DNA of 10,380 nt. Origin: Calditrichia bacterium. Its GTDB lineage: Bacteria > Calditrichota > Calditrichia > RBG-13-44-9. The stretch is taken from NCBI GenBank assembly GCA_037381445.1, contig JARRQT010000221.1:1-10380 (forward strand). The letters are read 5' to 3'. A model generated the notes under the pieces. The model did no database searches. It saw only the letters and a program-made list of their open reading frames with translations, and was not told the DNA's origin. Of the stretch, positions 3 to 10,380 are shown piece by piece; position 1 is the stretch's first letter, and each line of letters opens with the position of its first letter. The position numbers were made by a program, and so were the translations under genes.

Positions 3-407
3 TTTGTCCTGAGAAATCCGAGCAGTTATACGGAAGAACTCGCCCGTTTCCTTCTGATCTGGGTGGGATTGCTGGGAGCCAGCTATGCGGTCAGCAAGAA
101 ACTCCACCTGGCAATCGATTATTTCACGGGCAAAATTAAAGGGACCGGCCAGGTTTATGTTGAAATGTTCATCCAGTTTTGCGTCTTCAGCTTCGCACTC
201 TTTGTGATGGTGGTCGGCGGACTGCGCCTGGTGATCATTACCCTGACACTGAATCAGATCTCTGCCGCCCTTCAGATCCAACTGGGCTATGTGTATATGG
301 TCCTGCCCATCAGCGGATTACTCATCATGTTTTATTCGCTGCTTTTTATGATCGATCAGTTCCGGATTCTCTCCAACCGGAATGCCTCGGTCGAAAATCC
401 AAACTGA
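3..407 (+). CDS. dctQ: TRAP transporter small permease (DctQ family), 5'-truncated by the window edge
   Basis: The frame is open from base 3 (FVLRNPSSYTEELARFLLIWVGLLGASYA...HLAIDYF...SAALQIQLGYVYMVLPISG). EELAR, H-x-x-ID and the S-x-A-L/Y-x-x-x-P motifs are typical of DctQ. The protein is hydrophobic and lies directly upstream of a DctM gene. The ORF-track start at 63 is an internal GTG. Confidence 0.9.
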   Translation, partial: FVLRNPSSYTEELARFLLIWVGLLGASYAVSKKLHLAIDYFTGKIKGTGQVYVEMFIQFCVFSFALFVMVVGGLRLVIITLTLNQISAALQIQLGYVYMVLPISGLLIMFYSLLFMIDQFRILSNRNASVENPN

Positions 408-437
408 AACGAAAATTCAAAAACGTGAGCGTTCTCC

Positions 438-1736
438 ATGGAATGGATCGACGTTGTTGTTCTTGTCGCAAGTTTTGTGTTTCTCCTGATGGTCGGAGTT
501 CCCATCTCCTTCAGTATCGGCATCTCCACCATTCTCACCATGCTTCTGAGCATTCAGGCCATGCCGGCAGTCACCACGGTTGCGCAGCGCATGGCCACCG
601 GGCTGGACAGTTTTGCGCTGCTGGCAATCCCGTTTTTTATATTGTCCGGCCAGTTTATGAATCGGGGCGGAATTGCCCGGCGCCTTATTGATTTTGCCAA
701 GGTGCTGGTGGGCATGTTTCCCGGCGGTCTGGCATTCGTGAACATCATGGCCGCCATGCTGTTTGGCGCCATCTCCGGTTCTGCGGTGGCGGCGGCGGCG
801 GCGATTGGCGGATTCATGACCCCGCTGATGAAGGATGAAGGGTACGACCTGAATTACAGCGCCGCGGTCAATATCACATCCGCCACCACCGGCCTGATTA
901 TCCCCCCCAGCAATATTCTGATCGTATATTCGCTGGCCAGCGGCGGCGTATCCATCGCTGCGCTCTTCATTGCCGGTTACCTTCCCGGAATCCTGGTAGG
1001 GCTGGGGCTGATGCTGGTGGCCGGTTATATCGCCAAGAAAAAAGGCTATCCGGTCGGCGCGAGACTTAATCTCAAGGAAGCGACTCTCAGATTTCTGGAT
1101 GCCCTTCCCAGCCTGTTCATGATTGTGGTAGTAATCGGCGGAATTGTCGCGGGATACTTCACCGCCACGGAGGCTTCCGCCATTGCTGTCCTTTATACTT
1201 TCATACTTTCCGTCATTATTTACCGGGAAGTAAAGTGGAAAGAGATTCCCAAAATACTGCTGGACAGTTCGTCCACCACTGCTATCGTGATGCTGCTGAT
1301 CGGGACCTCCATGGGCATGTCGTGGATCATGTCCTACGAAAACATTCCCCAGAATGTGAGCGCCGCACTGCTGGCCCTGACCAACAGCAAAATCATCATA
1401 CTTTTGATCATTAATGTCATCCTTCTCATCGTGGGCACTTTCATGGATATGACCCCGGCGGTTTTGATTTTCACCCCCATCTTTCTGCCGGTGGTTATTC
1501 AACTGGGCATCAACCCCATCCAGTTCGGGATCATCATGGTGCTCAACCTCAGCATCGGACTGTGCACGCCGCCGGTGGGAAGCGTTCTGTTTGTGGGGAC
1601 CGGTATCGCGGGAACTACAATCACCAAAGTCATCAAACCATTGCTGCCGCTTTTCATTGCGATGATTGTGGCGCTGCTGCTCATTACCTATATCCCGGAA
1701 ATCGCCATGATACTGCCGAGATTGTTCGGCTATTAA
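438..1736 (+). CDS. dctM: TRAP transporter large permease (DctM family), probably for a sugar acid (uronate/aldonate)
   Basis: 432 aa, highly hydrophobic, with DctM motifs LLAIPFFIL, FGAISGSAVA, GLIIPPS, FTATEASAIA and GLCTPPVG. The substrate is inferred from the neighbouring genes only. Confidence 0.95.
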   Translation: MEWIDVVVLVASFVFLLMVGVPISFSIGISTILTMLLSIQAMPAVTTVAQRMATGLDSFALLAIPFFILSGQFMNRGGIARRLIDFAKVLVGMFPGGLAFVNIMAAMLFGAISGSAVAAAAAIGGFMTPLMKDEGYDLNYSAAVNITSATTGLIIPPSNILIVYSLASGGVSIAALFIAGYLPGILVGLGLMLVAGYIAKKKGYPVGARLNLKEATLRFLDALPSLFMIVVVIGGIVAGYFTATEASAIAVLYTFILSVIIYREVKWKEIPKILLDSSSTTAIVMLLIGTSMGMSWIMSYENIPQNVSAALLALTNSKIIILLIINVILLIVGTFMDMTPAVLIFTPIFLPVVIQLGINPIQFGIIMVLNLSIGLCTPPVGSVLFVGTGIAGTTITKVIKPLLPLFIAMIVALLLITYIPEIAMILPRLFGY

Positions 1737-1918
1737 AAATACCGGCACCGGGGGATCCCGGGGATTTTGGAATAGCAGCAAATATTTTGTCTGATACAAA
1801 TTGTAATTGAAATAGAATCGGGGAAGATGACCTGTCCTGAATTTGAATTCGCGATCGGATTTAGTGTAGCGGGTAATTTTGTTCTTCTTCTTGCAGAATT
1901 GGAAAAAGGAGTATTGAA

Positions 1919-2752
1919 ATGAATTTGTCAGAAATAACAAAAATGTATGATTTCACCGGCCGCACTGTTGTGGTGACGGGAGGCGCCGGTATTCTGGGCG
2001 GAGAGATGGCCTGTGCGCTGGCCGGATGCAATGCCAACGTCGTCATCCTGGACCGCGATCCGGCGCTGGCCGAACCCTTGCTGAAAAGAATTGGCGCTTG
2101 TGATGGCAGGACGATTGCGGTTTACGGCGATGTGCTGAAACCGGAAACGCTGCAACGGGCTGCGGAAGAGGTGGTCAAGACCTACGGTAGCATCGACGGT
2201 CTGATAAATTGCGCCGGGGGAAATCACCCCGATGCCACCACGGGACCGGACAAATCCTTCTTCGATCTGCCTCAGGATGCGTTTCGTTTTGTCTTCGATC
2301 TGAATCTGCTGGGGACCGTAACCGCCAGCCAGGCTTTCGGCAAATACATGGTGGAAAAGGGTGAGGGCGTCATTCTGAATGTGTCATCCATGAACGCATT
2401 CCGTCCGCTGACCAAAATTCCGGCCTATTCTTCCGCCAAGGCCGCGGTCAGCAATTTTACCCAATGGCTGGCGGTCCATATCGCCCAGGAATATTCGCCG
2501 AGCATCCGGGTCAATGCCATCGCTCCCGGTTTCTTTCTCACCAAACAGAACTATTTTCTGCTGAAGGACAAAGATACCGATGAACTGACGCCCCGGGGAC
2601 AGTCGATTCTGGCCCATACCCCCATGGGGCGCTTTGGCAAACCGGAAGATTTGCTGGGGGCTGTATTGTGGCTGCTCTCTCCGGCTTCCGCCTTTGTATC
2701 CGGCACGGTGCTGGCGATAGACGGCGGTTTCTCGGCCTACAGCGGCGTCTGA
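1919..2752 (+). CDS. uxuB: SDR-family D-mannonate oxidoreductase / fructuronate reductase (UxuB-like)
   Basis: Has the TGGAGILG Rossmann motif, an Asp at the end of beta2 (VILDRD, NAD-type) and the catalytic YSSAK. NVSSMNAFRPLTKIPAYSSAKAAVSNFTQWLAVH and HTPMGRFG resemble the Bacillus-type SDR mannonate oxidoreductases. RBS AAGGAG lies just upstream of the ATG. Confidence 0.8.
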   Translation: MNLSEITKMYDFTGRTVVVTGGAGILGGEMACALAGCNANVVILDRDPALAEPLLKRIGACDGRTIAVYGDVLKPETLQRAAEEVVKTYGSIDGLINCAGGNHPDATTGPDKSFFDLPQDAFRFVFDLNLLGTVTASQAFGKYMVEKGEGVILNVSSMNAFRPLTKIPAYSSAKAAVSNFTQWLAVHIAQEYSPSIRVNAIAPGFFLTKQNYFLLKDKDTDELTPRGQSILAHTPMGRFGKPEDLLGAVLWLLSPASAFVSGTVLAIDGGFSAYSGV

Positions 2753-4287
2753 TAATTTGTTGATCTGATCTTATACATCACTGGTTCGGGAAGTGGAATA
2801 ACTGGAAAGGGAATTTGGAGTGGAATTATCAACTGACTTGTCAAATATCGGCCGCTTGTCGGCCAATACCATTCGTCTGCTGGCCGCTGACGGCGTGCAG
2901 AAAGCCAATTCGGGACATCCCGGCATGCCCATGGGGATGGCGGACTGCGCCTATGTCCTGTGGACCCGGTTTCTGAAATTCAATCCGCAGGATCCGCAGT
3001 GGCCGGGCCGGGACCGTTTTATATTATCCGCCGGACACGGCTCCATGCTGCTGTATTCGCTGCTTCATCTCAGCGGCTATGGCGTCAGCATCGATGACCT
3101 GAAATCGTTCCGCCAATGGAACAGCCGGACCCCCGGCCATCCGGAATACGGCGGGCTGCCGGGCGTGGAAACAACCACCGGACCGCTGGGACAGGGTTTC
3201 GCCAACGGTATCGGGATGGCCATCGCGGCAAAGATCGCCGCTGAAAATTTTAACACCGGCGGGGTTCCCCTGTTCGGCAGCCATCATGTGTATGCGATTG
3301 TCAGCGACGGAGACCTGATGGAGGGCGTGTCCTCTGAGGCGGCTTCCCTGGCGGGACATCTGAAGCTGGGAAATATCATTTATCTCTATGATGACAACAA
3401 AATTACCATTGAAGGCAAAACCGACCTGGCCTTCACCGAAAGTGTCGCGCAGCGCTTTGAAGCATACGGCTGGCAGACCATCGCCGTCGACGGGCACAAT
3501 CAGGATGCCATTGAAGAGGCGATAAAAAAAGGAATTCAGGAAACCGGCAAACCGACCCTGATCCTGGCCAGAACGCACATCGGCTGCGGAAGCCCTCACA
3601 AACATGACACATCGGAAATTCACGGCGCGCCCATGGGACCGGAGGAACTCCGGGAAACGAAAATAGCCCTGGGTTTTCCGCCCGATGCCGATTTTCACGT
3701 TCCCGAAGAAGTGAAAAAACATTTCCGGGAGCGGGTGCAGACGCTGACCGCCGAATACGAGACGTGGCAGCAGCAGTTCATGGAGTGGCAGCAGAAAAAT
3801 CCCCAACTGGCTGAAAAATGGGAAGCGGCCCGGGACCGGAAAGTGCCCGGCGACATTGAGAAGTATCTGCTGGAAACAGTGAAAGACCAGAGCGGGGCGA
3901 CCCGTTCGCTGTCCGGCAAGGTGATGCAGAAAATAGCGGAAATGGTGCCTTCCTTTTACGGGGGGTCCGCGGACCTGGCGCCATCCACCAACACATTTAT
4001 GAAAAAATACGCCGCCATTTCTCCCGACGATTTTTCGGGACGCAATTTCCATTTCGGGGTGCGGGAACACGGCATGGGCGGGATTCTGAACGGCCTGGCC
4101 CTTTACGGCGGGTTCATCCCCTTCGGCGCCACATTTTTTGTGTTCTCCGATTATATGAGGCCGACCCTCCGGCTGGCGGCGATTTCCGGTCTGCAGGCGG
4201 TTTTTGTTTTTACCCACGACAGCATTTTTGTGGGGGAAGACGGCCCCACCCACCAGCCGGTGGAACAACTGGCGGCCCTGCGGGCCA

Positions 4288-4373
4288 TTCCCAACCTGAC
4301 GGTCATCCGTCCGGCAGACGGCCTGGAAACTTCCAAACCTGACGGTCATCCGACCGGCCGACGGCCTGGAAAC
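4288..4373 (+). repeat. 43-nt imperfect tandem duplication inside tkt causing a frameshift
   Basis: 4288-4330 is ttcccaacctgacggtcatccgtccggcagacggcctggaaac and 4331-4373 is ttccaaacctgacggtcatccgaccggccgacggcctggaaac. They match at 40 of 43 positions. Confidence 0.97.
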
Positions 4374-4832
4374 GGCCATGGCCTGGGGATACGCCCTGAA
4401 AAATCAGGACGCTCCCACGGCGCTGATTCTGACGCGCCAGAAGGTTGCGGAACTCAGGCGCGCGGATGATTTCGATCCTTACCTGGTGCAGAAAGGCGGC
4501 TACGTGCTCTCCCCGGAGAAGAATGCCGTGCCGGCGGTGGTCATCATTGCGACCGGCTCGGAAGCGGGGGTGGCGGTGCAGTGTCAGCAGATGCTGGAAG
4601 ATAACGGGATCTCCGCGCGGGTGGTTTCCATGCCCTCCATTGAGATTTTTAAGGCGCAGGACAGGAAATACCGGGACAGCGTGCTGCCCCGCGGGGACAG
4701 CATGTATGTGGTCATGGAAGCGGGCATCGCGCTGGGCTGGGGCGATCTGGTACGGGATGACTACCTGATGATCGGAATGGACCGCTACGGCGCTTCCGGA
4801 CCCTATACCATTCTGGCGGAACAGTTCGGTTT

Positions 4833-4860
4833 TACCGCGGAGAAGGTACCGCCGAGAAGG
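4833..4860 (+). repeat. 14-nt imperfect tandem duplication near the tkt 3' end causing a second frameshift
   Basis: 4833-4846 is taccgcggagaagg and 4847-4860 is taccgccgagaagg. They match at 13 of 14 positions. Confidence 0.9.
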
Positions 4861-4963
4861 CGGCCGGCAGAATCCTCGCCTGGCTGAAAACCGGCAATCC
4901 TGTTGTGAAAGATGAATAAGCGAAGACGGAAACGGAAAATATTGAATTCGAAGGAGAAATATC

Positions 4964-6373
4964 ATGCTGGATAAAAATATAGGAATCGTCGGCCTGGGCG
5001 TCATGGGACAGAACCTGGCGCTGAATATCGAGCGGAACGGCTACTCCGTGGCCGGCTTCGATCTGGATCCCAAAAAGGCGAAGCAGGCGGTGGATAAATT
5101 TAACGGCCGGGACATGGTGGTGCTGGCGACCATGGAAGAATTCATTCATAGCCTGGAAACACCCCGCAAAATTCTGATGATGGTGCCGGCCGGAAAAGCG
5201 GTCGATTCCGTGATCGGTGAGCTGAAGCCACACCTGCAGGCCGGCGATCTGCTGATCGACGGGGGAAACACCTATTTTGAAGACACCAACCGGCGCATTG
5301 AAGCGCTGAAAAGCAGCGGCATCCTCTATATCGGGACCGGCGTGAGCGGCGGCGAGGAAGGCGCGTTATGGGGCCCATCCATCATGCCCGGCGGGAATCC
5401 GGAGGCGTGGCCGCTGGTCAAACCGATCCTGCAGTCCATTTCCGCCAAGGTTGACGGCGATATTCCCTGCTGCGAGTGGGTGGGGAATGACGGGGCCGGC
5501 CATTTTGTGAAGATGGTCCATAACGGCATCGAATACGGCGACATGCAGATGATCTGCGAGGCCTACCTGCTGATGAAAAACATGCTGGGACTGACCCCGG
5601 ACGAGATGCACGACATTTTCGCGGAATGGAATAAAGGAGAACTGAACAGCTATCTCATCGAGATCACCAGCCAGATAATGGCCAAAAAAGATCCCGAAAC
5701 GGGCAAGCCGATGGTGGACGTGATACTGGACACCGCGGGACAGAAGGGGACCGGGAAATGGACCAGCCAGGTGGCGCTGGACCTGGGAATTCCCGCCCAG
5801 ACCATTGCGGAAGCGGTATTCGCGCGCATGCTGAGCGCCATCAAAGAAGAGCGGGTGGAAGCCTCGAAAATCCTGTCCGGGCCGGACAAAGCCTTTACCG
5901 GAAACCGGGAGGAATTTGTGGAGATGATCCGGCGCGCCCTGTACGCCTCCAAGATTTGCTCCTACGCCCAGGGATTTCAGCTCATGCAGGCCGCCAGCGA
6001 AGAATACGGCTGGAATATCAGTTTCGGGGACGTCTCCCTGCTGTGGCGGGGCGGCTGCATCATCCGGGCGCAGTTCCTGGGAAAAATCAAGGAAGCGTTT
6101 GAAGCGCAGCCCGAGCTTCCCAACCTGCTGCTCAATTCCTATTTCCGCAAGGCCATCGAGGCCAACCAGGAGGCCTGGCGGACGGTGGTGGCCGCCGCGG
6201 TGAGCCACGGCATTCCGGTGCCGGCTTTCAGCAGCGCGCTGTCCTATTATGATTCATACCGCACCGAGGTGCTGCCGGCCAATCTTCTGCAGGCCCAGCG
6301 GGACTTCTTCGGCGCGCATACCTACGAACGGGTGGACAGGCCGCGGGGAGAGTTTTTCCACACCGAATGGTGA
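4964..6373 (+). CDS. gnd: 6-phosphogluconate dehydrogenase, decarboxylating (long type)
   Basis: 469 aa with [61 protein letters not shown] and [29 protein letters not shown] lies upstream. Confidence 0.97.
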
Positions 6374-6387
6374 AAAAGTTTTGATTA

Positions 6388-6627
6388 AACGCGGATTCGA
6401 CATAACAAAGAAACCTATTAAATCATGTTAAAAACTCTTCTAAAACGTCATTCCCGCATGTCTCAAGCGGGAATCCACTCCAGCAGAATCGCAATTTGTT
6501 CTTCCCTGATCCGCTGGATTCTCCGGGATGGACCACTTTGTGGCGGCAATCCCCCGCAACAAGTGCGGGGCAGGCTCTGCCGGAATGACAATTAAACATG
6601 TGAGAGTTCTTGACTCGAATTCACGTT
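6388..6627. mobile_element. Putative non-autonomous MITE/REP-like element with 13-bp imperfect terminal inverted repeats
   Basis: The left end aacgcggattcga (6388-6400) matches the reverse complement of the right end tcgaattcacgtt (6615-6627), which is aacgtgaattcga, at 11 of 13 positions. The element contains internal REP-like palindromes, and its left end recurs at 10330-10380. No transposase is present in the window. Confidence 0.55.
6446..6589. repeat. Inverted pair of REP-like palindromes (CGTCATTCCCGC...GCGGGAATCCA / TGGATT...CCGGAATGAC) with a nested hairpin
   Basis: Stem attcccgc (6450-6457) pairs with gcgggaat (6467-6474). The opposing partial copy is tggatt (6515-6520) ... ccggaatgac (6580-6589). 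The nested hairpin is ccccgca-acaag-tgcgggg (6552-6570). The sequence resembles the widespread GTCATTCCC...GGGAATCC (CGTC-type/dRS3-like) repeat class. Confidence 0.7.
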
Positions 6628-6714
6628 AACTATTCATAAAGCTGTTTATCAAAGAAGGCTGTAAAAAAATGAAAGTTTTAAAATCGTATCGATGGGGCGA
6701 GGAGGAGGACTAAT

Positions 6715-7983
6715 ATGGTTATCGGAAACGGATCAACGGAGCGGCTGCTGACAGAACGGGAAGTTCTGGATTTATGCGGAGAAGCATTTGCGGGACGGAA
6801 ACTGGACGGAAAGCGGATACTGGCGATTATACCGGATCACTCACGCACCGCCCCCATCGATATGATGTTTCGAACGGTTTATAAACTGCTGGCGGAGCGG
6901 GCGGCGCGGCTGGATTTCATGGTGGCGCTGGGCACCCATCCGCCCATGAGCGATGAGGCCATCAACAAACGGGTGGGCATCACGCAGCAGGAGAGAAGCA
7001 CCAAATACCCTAAAGCCCGCTTTTTCAATCACCACTGGAAAGACCCCAACCAGCTCCGCAGCGCGGGAATCATTACGGAGGATGAGGTCGCCGAAATCTC
7101 CGGCGGGCGGATGCGCCGGGAAGTGAATGTCACCATCAATAAACAGGTATATGATTACGATATTCTCATGATCATCGGGCCGACATTTCCACATGAGGTG
7201 GTAGGATTCTCGGGCGGGAACAAGTATCTCTTCCCGGGAATCGCCGGCCAGGAAATCATCGACATGTTCCACTGGCTGGGCGCCCTCATCACCAATCCGT
7301 CCATTATCGGGACAAAATACACGCCGGTACGCAAGGTGGTGGACCGGGCCGCCGCCATGCTGCCCATGGAACGCCTGTGCCTGAGCCTGGTGGTCAAGGG
7401 AGCCGATCTGGCGGGGCTTTATATCGGGAGTCCGGAAGAAGCCTGGGAAGCGGCCGCCGGTCTGTCGGACAAGCTTCATATCACCTACAAGGACCGGCCT
7501 TTCCGCAAGGTGCTGTCCCGCGCGCCGGAGATGTATGACGATCTGTGGACCGGCGGCAAATGCATGTACAAGCTGGAGCCGGTGGTGGCGGACGGCGGGG
7601 AGCTGATCATCTACGCGCCGCACATTAAGGAAGTCTCCGTCACCCACGGGGAAATCATCGAGAAGATCGGCTACCATGTCCGGGACTATTTTGTAAAACA
7701 GATGGATAAATTCAGGGATATTCCGGGCGGCGTCATGGCCCATTCCACCCATGTAAAAGGCATCGGCAGCTACGAAAACGGCGTCGAAAAGCCGCGGGTG
7801 AAGGTGGTGCTGGCAACACAGATCCCGGAGGCGGTCTGCCGGAAAATCAATATGGGATACCGGGACCCCGCCACCATCGACATTGAGGAATGGAAAGACC
7901 GGGAAGAGGAGGGAATTCTCTACGTGCCCAAGGCCGGGGAGATGCTTTACCGGCTGAAGGACGATCCTTTCCGGCAGTCATGA
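6715..7983 (+). CDS. LarA-superfamily (lactate racemase domain, nickel-pincer nucleotide dependent) alpha-hydroxy-acid racemase/epimerase; candidate D-mannonate/D-gluconate 2-epimerase
   Basis: 422 aa with LarA-like motifs IIPDHSRT, VALGTHPPM, FFNHHW, FPHEVVGFSGGNKYLFPGIAG, DMFHW and VVADGGELII. Strong RBS GGAGGAGG. The family call comes from motifs and the substrate only from gene context. Confidence 0.85.
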   Translation: MVIGNGSTERLLTEREVLDLCGEAFAGRKLDGKRILAIIPDHSRTAPIDMMFRTVYKLLAERAARLDFMVALGTHPPMSDEAINKRVGITQQERSTKYPKARFFNHHWKDPNQLRSAGIITEDEVAEISGGRMRREVNVTINKQVYDYDILMIIGPTFPHEVVGFSGGNKYLFPGIAGQEIIDMFHWLGALITNPSIIGTKYTPVRKVVDRAAAMLPMERLCLSLVVKGADLAGLYIGSPEEAWEAAAGLSDKLHITYKDRPFRKVLSRAPEMYDDLWTGGKCMYKLEPVVADGGELIIYAPHIKEVSVTHGEIIEKIGYHVRDYFVKQMDKFRDIPGGVMAHSTHVKGIGSYENGVEKPRVKVVLATQIPEAVCRKINMGYRDPATIDIEEWKDREEEGILYVPKAGEMLYRLKDDPFRQS

Positions 7984-7991
7984 ACGAATCC

Positions 7992-8026
7992 GCGGACCGG
8001 TAGCCGCCGGCCTGCTTTAATTTTTT
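7992..8026 (+). terminator. Possible intrinsic terminator between the larA-like and pfk-like genes
   Basis: An imperfect GC stem gcggaccgg (7992-8000) / ccggcctgc (8007-8015), with one G-U pair and one mismatch, is followed by tttaatttttt. Confidence 0.4.
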
Positions 8027-8061
8027 ATCACGGGAGTTGATCAATATTTTGAGGTGCGCAT

Positions 8062-9354
8062 ATGCCGAAGAATAAGAATGTCATCATTGCCCAGTCGGGC
8101 GGGCCTTCTCCGGTGATTAATAATTCCCTTCGCGGGATTATTGAAACCTGCCGCATGTTCCCCGATAAGTTCGGGAAGATTTACGGCGGGTATCACGGTA
8201 TTGAAGGCATCTTAAAAGAAAATCTGCTGGACCTTTCCGCGCAGCGCGAAGAAGAGATTTCACTGCTGCGCACCACCCCCGCGGCCGGTTCCATCGGCAC
8301 CTGCCGCTACAAGCTCAAAGCCCACCAGACCGAAGATTTCCAGCGGGTGATCGAGGTCTTCCGGGCCCACGACATCGGCTATTTCTTCTACATCGGGGGA
8401 AATGATTCCATGGACACCGCCAACAAGATCGCCAAACTGGCCGGCGGGCAGGGGCTGGACGTGTCGGCGGTGGGCGTTTCCAAGACCATCGACAACGATG
8501 TGGGCGATTCGGAATTCAAACTGATCGATCACACGCCGGGATACGGCAGCGTGGCGCGCTACTGGGCCAACATTGTGCAGAATGTGAACGAGGAGAACGC
8601 GGGATCATCGCCGGCGGACCCGGTGCTGGTGCTGCAGGCCATGGGCCGGAAAATCGGCTTTATCCCCGCGGCGGCGCGGCTGGCGGACCCCGGGCGCAGC
8701 ATGCCGCTGCAGATCTACATGGCGGAATCCGGGGTGAGCATGCCGGAGCTGGCGGACAATGTGAACGACGAGCTGAAGCGCAGCGGCCGGGCGATTGTGA
8801 TTGTGAGCGAGGGCTTCAGCGTGGGGCAGATCGGGGAGGTGAAGGACTCCTTCGGCCATACCGAATTCAGCGCCAGCCAGATGACCGCCCAGCAGGCGGT
8901 GGTGAATTACCTGAACCAGGCCGGCATTCACGCGCGCGGTTCGGCCCGCGGCCAGACGCCCGGCACCGACCAGCGCGACACCATCATCTACGCCTCCACG
9001 GTGGACCTGGACGAGGCCTACAAGATAGGGCAGAACGCGGTGGTCATCGCGGTGGAGAACGGTTCGGGCTACATGTCCACCATTCTGCGGCGGCCCGGCC
9101 TGATCTACTGCGTGGATTACGACAAGGTGCCGCTGGACCTGGTGGCCAATTCGGAGCGGAAATTCCCGCGGGAGTGGCTGGCGCCCAGCCGCATCGATGT
9201 GACCGATGATTTCGTGCGCTACGCAAGGCCGCTGACCGGCGAGGACTGGGTGAGCGTCCCGGTTGTCAACGGGCGGCAGCGTTTCGCGCGCTTCGAACCC
9301 GTTTTCGCGGAGCGGACACTGCCCGCCTACGAACCGCAGGCATACAAAAAATAG
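8062..9354 (+). CDS. pfp: Phosphofructokinase A-family kinase, PPi-dependent signature (diphosphate--fructose-6-phosphate 1-phosphotransferase-like)
   Basis: 430 aa with AQSGGPSPVIN, IGTCRYKL, YIGGNDSMDT (Asp after GGx indicates PPi type), SKTIDND (Lys indicates PPi type), DHTPGYGS, MGR and VSEG. RBS GAGGTG. Confidence 0.8.
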   Translation: MPKNKNVIIAQSGGPSPVINNSLRGIIETCRMFPDKFGKIYGGYHGIEGILKENLLDLSAQREEEISLLRTTPAAGSIGTCRYKLKAHQTEDFQRVIEVFRAHDIGYFFYIGGNDSMDTANKIAKLAGGQGLDVSAVGVSKTIDNDVGDSEFKLIDHTPGYGSVARYWANIVQNVNEENAGSSPADPVLVLQAMGRKIGFIPAAARLADPGRSMPLQIYMAESGVSMPELADNVNDELKRSGRAIVIVSEGFSVGQIGEVKDSFGHTEFSASQMTAQQAVVNYLNQAGIHARGSARGQTPGTDQRDTIIYASTVDLDEAYKIGQNAVVIAVENGSGYMSTILRRPGLIYCVDYDKVPLDLVANSERKFPREWLAPSRIDVTDDFVRYARPLTGEDWVSVPVVNGRQRFARFEPVFAERTLPAYEPQAYKK

Positions 9355-9387
9355 TGAGAGACAGAAAGACAGTAAGGAGAAACAGAC

Positions 9388-10275
9388 ATGGTAGATCCAC
9401 AGCATGAGCTGAAAAATTTAGAACCCAGGCACCGCTTTCTGGTGGCCATCGACTCGGACGGCTGCGCCTTCGACAGCATGGAGATAAAGCACAAGGAGTG
9501 TTTCATTCCCAACATCATCAAGCACTGGGACCTGCAGCCGGTATCAAAATACGCGCGGGCGGCGGCGGAGTTCGTGAACCTCTACTCCAAATGGCGGGGC
9601 ATCAACCGCTTCCCGGCGCTGACCATGGTGTTCGATCTGCTGAACGACTGGCCGGAGGTGCAGAAGCGGGGCGTGAAAATCCCGGACGTGCCCGGCCTGC
9701 GGGAGTGGATAAAGCGGGAGACCAAACTGGGGAACCCCGCCCTGAAGGCCGAAGTGGGCCGCAGCGGGGATGAAGAGCTGACCCGGGCGCTGGCCTGGAG
9801 TGAAGCGGTGAACGCCACGGTGGCGGACATGGTGCGCGGGGTGCCGCCGTTTCCCTACGTGCGGGAGAGCCTGCAGAAGATTTCGGAGTGGGCGGACATC
9901 ATTGTCTGTTCCGCCACGCCCTACGAGGCGCTGCGCCGGGAATGGGAAGAGCACGGCATCGCGGGATACACGCGGGTGATAGCCGGGCAGGAGATGGGCA
10001 GCAAGAAAGAGCACCTGCAGATGGCCATTGAAGGCAAGTATGAGCGGGAGAACGTGATCATGATGGGAGACGCCCCCGGCGACATGAAAGCGGCGCGGGC
10101 CAACAACATCAAGTTCTTCCCCATCAACCCCGGGAAGGAAGAGGGCTCCTGGGAGCTGTTCTACAGCGAGGGAGCGGACAAGCTGCGCAGCGGCGGATAT
10201 TCGGCGGAATACGAGGCGGGGCTGATCGAGGCCTTCGAGGCGCTGCTGCCGGAGCTGCCGCCCTGGAAGCGGTGA
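9388..10275 (+). CDS. HAD-superfamily hydrolase (putative sugar-phosphate phosphatase)
   Basis: 295 aa with motif I IDSDGCAFD (DxD), motif II VCSAT, the motif III Lys in GSKKEH and motif IV MMGDAPGD. RBS TAAGGAG. Confidence 0.85.
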   Translation: MVDPQHELKNLEPRHRFLVAIDSDGCAFDSMEIKHKECFIPNIIKHWDLQPVSKYARAAAEFVNLYSKWRGINRFPALTMVFDLLNDWPEVQKRGVKIPDVPGLREWIKRETKLGNPALKAEVGRSGDEELTRALAWSEAVNATVADMVRGVPPFPYVRESLQKISEWADIIVCSATPYEALRREWEEHGIAGYTRVIAGQEMGSKKEHLQMAIEGKYERENVIMMGDAPGDMKAARANNIKFFPINPGKEEGSWELFYSEGADKLRSGGYSAEYEAGLIEAFEALLPELPPWKR

Positions 10276-10329
10276 AGCGCCGGCCGGAAGGACAGGCCGG
10301 AGACATTTAACCGGATATCATTTAAAAAT

Positions 10330-10380
10330 AGCGTGAGTTCGACATAATAAAAATGTCAATTAAATTATGTTGGAAGCTAT
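10330..10380 (+). repeat. Second, truncated copy of the left end of the 6388-6627 element
   Basis: 10330-10380 aligns without gaps to 6388-6438 at 36 of 51 positions, sharing ttcgacataa and attaaatYatgtt. It runs off the window edge. Confidence 0.65.

Follow-up and report, generated by a model that had tools for sequence, protein, structure and literature searches.

How a bacterium might carry hexuronates into the pentose phosphates when no dehydratase is encoded beside its uronate genes, and what a phosphofructokinase (PFK)-family protein and a HAD phosphatase would do in such an operon, are the questions raised by a stretch of DNA from a Calditrichia bacterium. The stretch, hereafter the window, is the entire contig C221 (JARRQT010000221.1; 10,380 bp) of a 401-contig draft genome that is 91.85% complete, and the best named matches of its proteins are in Calditrichia, KSB1 and Ignavibacteriaceae. 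We propose that the operon turns imported glucuronate and galacturonate into 6-phosphogluconate without a dehydratase, with the PFK-like protein serving as gluconate kinase and probably using pyrophosphate (PPi), a reading to which we give an even chance of being right. The wider proposition, that the PfkA-fold subclade to which this protein belongs uses PPi to phosphorylate a free sugar acid, whether gluconate, mannonate or fructuronate, stands slightly better than even. The initial annotation was correct in describing co-oriented TRAP, uxuB-like, tkt, gnd, larA-like, PFK and HAD genes, which all lie on the + strand between positions 3 and 10275, and in finding that uxuA, kdgK and eda are all absent from the window. 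Its features are:

3-407, + strand: dctQ, TRAP small permease, truncated at the 5' end where the contig starts (Pfam DctQ, 81 bits)
438-1736, + strand: dctM, TRAP large permease (TIGR00786, 451 > 268 bits)
1919-2752, + strand: short-chain dehydrogenase/reductase (SDR), fructuronate reductase / D-mannonate oxidoreductase of the UxuB/UxaD type (PRK08277, 357 > 281)
2820-4887, + strand: tkt, transketolase, split (TIGR00232 on both pieces)
4964-6373, + strand: gnd, long-chain 6-phosphogluconate dehydrogenase (TIGR00873, 735 > 427)
6386-6640, no strand assigned: palindromic interspersed repeat in the gnd-larA interval (23 matches, spread over 22 contigs)
6715-7983, + strand: LarA-family nickel-pincer 2-epimerase of the GntE type (best PDB match 4NAR, E 4e-71)
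8062-9354, + strand: PFK-family enzyme of the R-x5-T-D-Q-R subclade (PRK14072, 355 > 273)
9388-10275, + strand: C1-cap HAD phosphatase (Pfam HAD_2; HAD fold)

The proposed route would begin with uptake of hexuronate by the TRAP transporter, followed by the formation of fructuronate by UxaC, together with UxaE in the case of galacturonate, both encoded elsewhere in the genome. The SDR, which scores above its family cut-off, would reduce fructuronate to D-mannonate; the nickel-pincer enzyme would epimerise this to gluconate, a reaction shown for its homologue GntE2; and the PFK-like enzyme, judging from its gene slot, would phosphorylate gluconate at C6. Gnd would then decarboxylate 6-phosphogluconate to ribulose-5-phosphate (Ru5P), its motifs suggesting NAD as the likely acceptor, which would offset the NADH spent by the SDR, and Tkt and transaldolase would pass the pentose phosphates on.

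One indication that these genes act together is their conservation. A scan with the PFK-like protein gave 596 confirmed matches, the best 80 of which were taken; 77 of these had an open reading frame of sufficient length and were classed by motif, L050, L068 and L072 being excluded. The three resulting classes, defined by motif and not by neighbourhood, each form one side of a branch, with supports of 94, 100 and a weak 23, the first being that of the R-x5-T-D-Q-R clade. This class comprises 48 loci from Bacteroidota, Hydrogenedentota, Chloroflexota, Planctomycetota, Ignavibacteriota and others. Near the PFK gene there is a larA in 39 of them, a HAD in 37, a gnd in 35 and an SDR in 34; at least one of the four occurs in 46, and all four in 24, many of the contigs being cut. 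None of these neighbours was seen at the 15 loci of a sister clade or at the 14 canonical PPi-PFK loci. A pdxB-like gene is found near the PFK in 16 of the 48, uxaE in 13, uxaC in 11, uxuA in four, tkt in two and PfkB in none. Ten loci are without a nearby larA, and eight genomes among them have one elsewhere. The co-occurrence of the uxuB-like SDR, gnd, larA, PFK and HAD that the initial annotation proposed to look for extends across genomes of many phyla.

In two loci (L018, L019; Bremerella, Pirellulaceae) the order is pfk-HAD-gnd-sdr-zwf, which matches that of Thermogutta, where THTE_2629 is the PFK, THTE_2631 the gnd and THTE_2632 the SDR. The recurrent PdxB-like 4-phosphoerythronate dehydrogenase (416 bits against a cut-off of 434) belongs to Hydrogenedentota and Bacteroidales clusters, with examples at L038:6910-8049, L022 and L040.

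A second line of evidence comes from the kinases that stand in the place of this PFK at other loci. Among the best 80 of 570 metagenome larA matches, this PFK accompanies the epimerase in nine loci, a PfkB-family kinase lies within 3.5 kb in 43, both occur in none and neither in 28; the exclusion of PFK and PfkB has a Fisher p of 5e-4, which is overstated as related loci are non-independent. In a FastTree phylogeny of epimerases (119 after dereplication at 90%: 46 with PFK, 50 with PfkB, 23 with none), the label changes between PFK and PfkB at least eight times and both major LarA clades include both kinase types; the labels of 20 loci come from genome-level searches, two of the kinases being on another contig and one PfkB being 36% like the query. 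Of 71 genomes surveyed within the phylum, seven carry the PFK, and these same seven carry the HAD. Hexonate-type larA is present in 23 of the 71, including all seven, and the larA-linked PfkB, found at 73% or more in 13 genomes, is in none of the seven; at E<=1e-40 it has a match in 0/7 PFK genomes against 16/16 of the other larA genomes. GntK/IdnK was found in none of six relatives and none of 50 further genomes with this PFK (0/56; the 50 are drawn from 51 candidates, L029 being left out), the PfkB query reaches at most 37% identity in the further genomes (18 of them), and the 71 genomes surveyed within the phylum yielded no FGGY-type gntK above the cut-off.

The same position is filled by a gluconokinase on the Catenovulum adriaticum plasmid (uxaC-dctPQM-gluconokinase-larA) and by a COG1070 kinase in Thermotoga (FGGY type, Table S1). 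Four kinase families occupy this one slot, one of them a recognised gluconokinase family. On the Saccharobesus litoralis plasmid NZ_CP026605.1, kinase and epimerase form a single 589-aa GntK/IdnK-LarA group-18 fusion (L269:7494-9263), which is annotated as gluconokinase only; both domains are above cut-off, and larE, larB, uxaE and gnd follow. A KdgK-like PfkB follows the epimerase at L088:3763-4842 and in 42 other larA loci. Since L113, L126 and L151 have a second PfkB, the larA-linked one is probably not a 2-keto-3-deoxygluconate (KDG) kinase, and it is likely a kinase of gluconate or mannonate that has escaped annotation. Seven loci of the type uxaE-sdr-pdxB-gnd-IMPase-sdr-larA-Gfo/Idh, IMPase being inositol monophosphatase, have no recognisable kinase in the locus (L101, L104, L105, L110, L120, L121, L123), and none was seen in L106, L107, L122, L129, L137 and L138 either; an additional kinase type may be present at such loci.

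The PFK-like protein itself keeps the catalytic residues of its family (T142, D144, D146, M194, R196, E250, R305) and all furanose-binding residues. Its predicted model, with a predicted local distance difference test score (pLDDT) of 89, has template modelling (TM) scores of 0.85-0.86 to the PPi-PFKs of Nitrosospira and Marinobacter. D115 and K141, common to 14/14 canonical members, correspond to the Asp104/Lys124 signature, which we take to be the mark of the PPi type; the ATP-type enzyme of B. stearothermophilus has Gly at both positions, and the window protein probably uses PPi. The contacts of the fructose-6-phosphate (F6P) 6-phosphate described in excerpts of PMC7319554 (R162/R243/H249/R252), mapped by sequence alignment via the genome's other PFK and the B. 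stearothermophilus enzyme, correspond here to P187, R296, T302 and R305, with an added D303. This site reads P/R/T or C/R in the window protein and in 48/48 loci of its clade, against K/H/Y/R in 13/14 canonical members, and the window protein differs from all 14. Remodelled in this way, the site would fit a carboxylate without proving one. With the PPi-PFKs of PRK14072 (PDB 3HNO and 3K2Q, and the M. capsulatus enzyme as cited in a passage of PMC5673643) the protein has in common the fold, the T-x-D-x-D and M-G-R motifs, E250, R305 and D115/K141. It differs from them in being 34-39% identical, in a site that reads P/R/T-D/R in place of K/H/Y-L/R, and in belonging to a subclade linked to uronate genes, which accompany 0/14 canonical members. 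The sister clade, of the T-G-Q-x-P-G-V-I-Q-R type (L017, L021, L051-L053, L055, L057, L058, L060, L062, L065-L067, L070, L071), has lost the equivalents of both R243 and H249, and its neighbours are unconserved.

The best PDB match of the LarA-family protein, 4NAR, is T. maritima GntE2, whose catalytic and nickel-pincer nucleotide (NPN)-binding residues are kept (D41, R44, H75, H160, E161-V162, K170, H186, W278, K282), as are the E-V/S loop and alpha-11 Trp signature of GntE groups 18-20 of the LarA superfamily; the position of GntE2 N348 holds a His. The protein scores 184.5 bits with NCBIfam NF052594 (group 18 putative hexonate epimerase), below the cut-off of 500, and on the LarA tree it falls in another clade than that group. 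By analogy with GntE2, it is predicted to be a mannonate/gluconate 2-epimerase, the activity shown in 2020 for GntE2/LarAH20 according to excerpts of Desguin 2020 (PMC7583248), further homologues with GntE activity being described in a part of PMC11770544.

Elsewhere in the genome we found uxaC (552 > 387 bits), UxaE (459 bits) and the NPN biosynthesis genes for LarB (283 > 175), LarC (201 > 90) and LarE (324 > 150). The order fructuronate, mannonate, gluconate, 6-phosphogluconate, Ru5P advanced in the initial annotation is well supported by these genes, by the conserved module and by the GntE2 residues. Its list of uronate genes to be sought in the genome gave a mixed return: uxaC, uxaE, eda and gntK are there, and uxuA and KdgK were not found. 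UxuA is without a match, and the UxaA domain was not found either, in a draft whose incompleteness makes absence no proof; one of the seven PFK genomes of the phylum has a UxuA match, in two pieces. With uxuA not found, the complete adjacent uxuA-kdgK-eda set named by the initial annotation as a competing carrier of the flux is not seen. KdgK-like PfkB queries have no match in the genome, and none of its seven PfkB-family matches scored as KdgK. The initial annotation's statement that there is no gluconate kinase holds for the window and fails for the genome, which has a stand-alone GntK/IdnK gluconokinase on contig C66 (182 > 114 bits), unlinked to the operon; neither the window nor the contig that likely precedes it showed a linked gluconate kinase of known family.

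That upstream contig, C337, terminates in galU-uxaC-dctP and the first codons of dctQ; we infer that it is likely the continuation of the window, the two being without sequence overlap. DctM, 66% identical to its counterpart in the uxaC-dctPQM-gntK-larA operon of Catenovulum adriaticum, likely serves hexuronate uptake. Contigs C297 and C355 (L190, L004; 119-base overlap) group kduI, LacI and eda with uxaE and an SDR. Despite this eda, the genome yielded no KdgK, and a KdgK-like match at E<=1e-40 occurs in 0/7 PFK genomes of the phylum; the PFK-like enzyme is also a candidate for KDG phosphorylation.

Much of this route has precedents. Rodionova is said, in citing passages, to have proposed the backbone for T. 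maritima in 2012. Excerpts of Rodionov 2013 (PMC3750489) describe there a UxaR-regulated branch gnd-uxaE-uxaD-gntE-gntK in an operon induced by pectin. The window has the same SDR reductase, a GntE-type epimerase with the same catalytic residues and Gnd, and uxaE and uxaC lie elsewhere in its genome; the window differs in filling the slot of the COG1070 kinase with a PFK-family protein plus a HAD, in having Asp33 where T. maritima Gnd is NADP-type, and in that T. maritima retains uxuA-kdgK-kdgA while UxuA was not found here. The isomerase-phosphoketolase route of Lactobacillus suebicus, shown in its phosphorylated version (Valk 2020, PMC6978723, in excerpt), is likewise a dehydratase-free and redox-neutral passage from hexuronate to 6-phosphogluconate and Ru5P. 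The plasmid operons of C. adriaticum (NZ_CP109967.1) and S. litoralis (NZ_CP026605.1) have in common with the present system uxaC, TRAP (Catenovulum), a group-18 hexonate epimerase, larB/larE, and uxaE and gnd (Saccharobesus), but their kinase is, by annotation, a P-loop GntK/IdnK, and their 17-kb stretches hold no such PFK or HAD. The initial annotation did not recognise the combination as a characterised pathway, a view that needs to be divided accordingly: the backbone of reductase, nickel-pincer epimerase, kinase and Gnd is published, having been proposed for Thermotoga and shown in part, and what is new is the slot filled by a PFK-type kinase and a HAD. No paper tying either protein to this route was found in the literature searched, most subscription journals lying outside its coverage, and the part of the Desguin 2020 supplements covered has no COG0205 or COG0546 entry. 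It is gene context that points to the key kinase step.

Several observations pull against gluconate phosphorylation by this PFK. The GntK on C66 could do the gluconate step in this genome, and the kept furanose residues are easier to reconcile with a ring substrate than with gluconate, which is open-chain. The change at the phosphate site is mixed, with two contacts lost, one Arg gained and one Asp added. The sister clade is also changed at this site yet unclustered, and 9/15 of its genomes have a hexonate-type larA elsewhere; it may do the same job unlinked. Neither kinase is seen in 28/80 larA loci, many but not all of them on cut contigs; FGGY and other kinases below the cut-off may be present; and the PfkB found beside larA is KdgK-like and has not itself been characterised. 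A UxuA-family match occurs in 11/50 of the further PFK genomes, six of them full length. Since uxuA is found in these genomes and in 4/48 loci, a dehydratase-free route can coexist with the classical one. Lastly, Thermogutta THTE_2629-2632, taken as probable orthologues from gene order only, show no induction on xanthan relative to trehalose (fold changes of 0.87, 0.56, 0.94 and 0.95).

The first alternative, which we consider unlikely, is that the protein is an ordinary PPi-dependent kinase of F6P or sedoheptulose-7-phosphate (S7P) serving the products of Gnd and Tkt, gluconate being left to GntK or an unrecognised kinase. The PRK14072 cut-off is indeed exceeded, the TM score to the Nitrosospira PPi-PFK is 0.86, GntK is present in this genome, and Elcheninov 2017, as excerpted, assigned S7P phosphorylation to THTE_2629 on the strength of its homology with the M. 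capsulatus enzyme. However, the genome has two other PFKs and two transaldolase-family genes, so that this PFK would be unneeded for glycolysis or S7P turnover; this alternative also leaves unexplained the exclusion of PfkB and the absence of GntK from the 56 other genomes, and the phosphate site is unlike that of 14/14 canonical members. A version in which the enzyme provides an S7P bypass of a missing transaldolase was rejected, all seven PFK genomes of the phylum having a transaldolase-family gene.

Two further alternatives keep the sugar-acid kinase and alter the order of steps. In one, the PFK-like enzyme phosphorylates D-mannonate and LarA epimerises 6-phosphomannonate to 6-phosphogluconate, as in L. 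suebicus extracts, where both activities were shown, the genes being unknown. The gene-slot data fit both orders equally, and the His at the GntE2 N348 position of the window LarA is in keeping with this one; but GntE2 accepts unphosphorylated mannonate (KM 17 mM), LarA motifs are alike across kinase types, and the Saccharobesus epimerase is fused to an enzyme of the gluconokinase family, E. coli gluconate kinase reportedly making no use of mannonate. We allow it a small share of the probability. In the other, the enzyme acts first, on fructuronate, and the SDR and LarA handle phosphorylated intermediates. Fructuronate in its furanose form mimics F6P, its carboxylate standing where F6P has the 6-phosphate, and the ring-binding and catalytic residues are kept while the 6-phosphate site alone is altered; moreover, the PfkB alternative resembles KdgK and IolC, which are keto-aldonate kinases. 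Against this order, the window SDR shares its active-site motifs with SDRs adjoining uxuA, including those of the four uxuA loci, and UxuA needs free mannonate; the SDRs of PFK-type and PfkB-type loci are inseparable by motif, and a gluconokinase-family enzyme fills the slot in Catenovulum and Saccharobesus. Fructuronate as the first acceptor therefore receives a still smaller share. No residues tracking kinase type were found in the active-site motifs of LarA, SDR and Gnd, and because the LarA and SDR motifs ignore kinase type and uxuA-linked SDRs have the same motifs, we would place the kinase after both. That the module serves another sugar acid or repair (e.g. erythronate/4-phosphoerythronate), with uronate catabolism secondary, is very unlikely: the pdxB-like gene in 16/48 loci and the uninduced probable Thermogutta orthologues would suit it, but uxaE (13/48), uxaC (11/48) and the mannonate oxidoreductase (34/48) recur, uxaC-dctP likely lies directly upstream here, and pdxB is neither in the window nor in most loci.

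In the HAD protein, motifs I-IV are intact (D22-x-D24, S175/T177, K206, D228/D232), and D22, D24, S175, K206, D228 and D232 are invariant in 30/30 aligned HADs. Its model (pLDDT 94.9) has a Rossmannoid core and matches HAD structures, and the family is large, 8,000/8,000 candidates being scored. The fold and four motifs are those of the C1-cap HADs phosphoglycolate phosphatase (2YY6), CbbY (4UAV) and the BT pyrophosphatase (3QU4), to which the window protein is at most 18% identical, with a query TM of ~0.4-0.5 and a larger cap. We found nothing close to it among solved structures or curated families; as clues to the substrate there is no PDB sequence match and no NCBIfam family, the fold matches and relatives' names are generic, and a plasmid match is unannotated and uninformative. 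The HAD accompanies the PFK in 7/9 larA-anchored PFK loci, versus 1/43 PfkB loci; a PfkB is followed by another HAD in 13 loci, and seven loci without a visible kinase have a gene of the inositol-monophosphatase family. As three unrelated phosphatases recur, a need for repair is suggested, and the HAD may be a repair phosphatase acting on dead-end phospho-esters, for example 6-phosphomannonate or 4-phosphoerythronate, a proposal about as apt to be right as wrong. 4-Phosphoerythronate inhibits Gnd, and the pdxB-like neighbours fit it as a HAD substrate; pentulose bisphosphates are candidates too.

The cofactors bear on the energetics of the route. The SDR carries Asp45 after strand B, which we presume to mark use of NAD(H). 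The window Gnd has Asp33-Leu34-Asp35 where Asn-Arg-Thr is usual, and is predicted to prefer NAD, a D-L-D type loop being NAD-type in Gnd according to a passage of PMC5090862. With these two features the operon would be NAD-balanced. The NADP-type Arg is retained in 67/79 cluster Gnds (hand count) and in 4/4 close relatives checked, which counts against a general role for NAD; since most cluster Gnds keep the Arg, the predicted NAD use is local to this operon. A housekeeping gnd is present with zwf and pgl (L200:5632-7044, contig C99), and its product likewise has an Asp-type loop, Y-D-K-D; both Gnds of the genome may prefer NAD.

The transketolase and TRAP genes, which the initial annotation included in its candidate pathway cluster, are unconserved there, each occurring in only 2/48 PFK loci, and we rejected them as core parts of the module. 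The tkt is interrupted by a 43-bp tandem duplication with copies at 4293 and 4336 (~4293-4378), and a 14-bp near-duplication at 4834-4861 alters it near the 3' end. The 43 bases are missing from the contigs of 3/3 public runs compared (two studies, one possibly the source) and tkt is intact in two relatives (L194 and L196), so that the 43-bp frameshift is most likely an assembly error, and the reading of tkt as a true pseudogene was rejected. Another tkt lies on contig C4, beside which (C4:55529 onward) a transaldolase domain is found within a 951-aa open frame; similar lengths occur in several relatives, and the frame is probably a transaldolase-phosphoglucose isomerase fusion. The palindromic repeat, with a second window copy at 10320-10380, has no match in Rfam, often sits at contig ends and is outside the pathway. 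Promoter and terminator scans of the window were both near chance (10 versus 5.8 and 8 versus 11.0 expected).

If the proposed kinase function is correct, the PfkA family would gain free sugar acids as acceptors, for which we found no report in the literature searched, and a fourth unrelated kinase family would have been recruited to the nickel-pincer uronate route. Many genes named phosphofructokinase would then be misannotated; at E<=1e-100 the PFK-like protein has 7,719 protein clusters, inside and outside the subclade taken together, called PFK where named. A PPi-driven gluconate kinase would also be a directly testable prediction about a single enzyme. With an NAD-type SDR and Gnd, hexuronate would become pentose phosphate with zero ATP and no net redox change, and the redox neutrality of such routes is valued for engineering (Valk 2020, PMC6978723, in excerpt). 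More generally, this would give sediment and soil bacteria of many phyla an ATP-sparing, redox-neutral use of the uronates derived from pectin and xylan.

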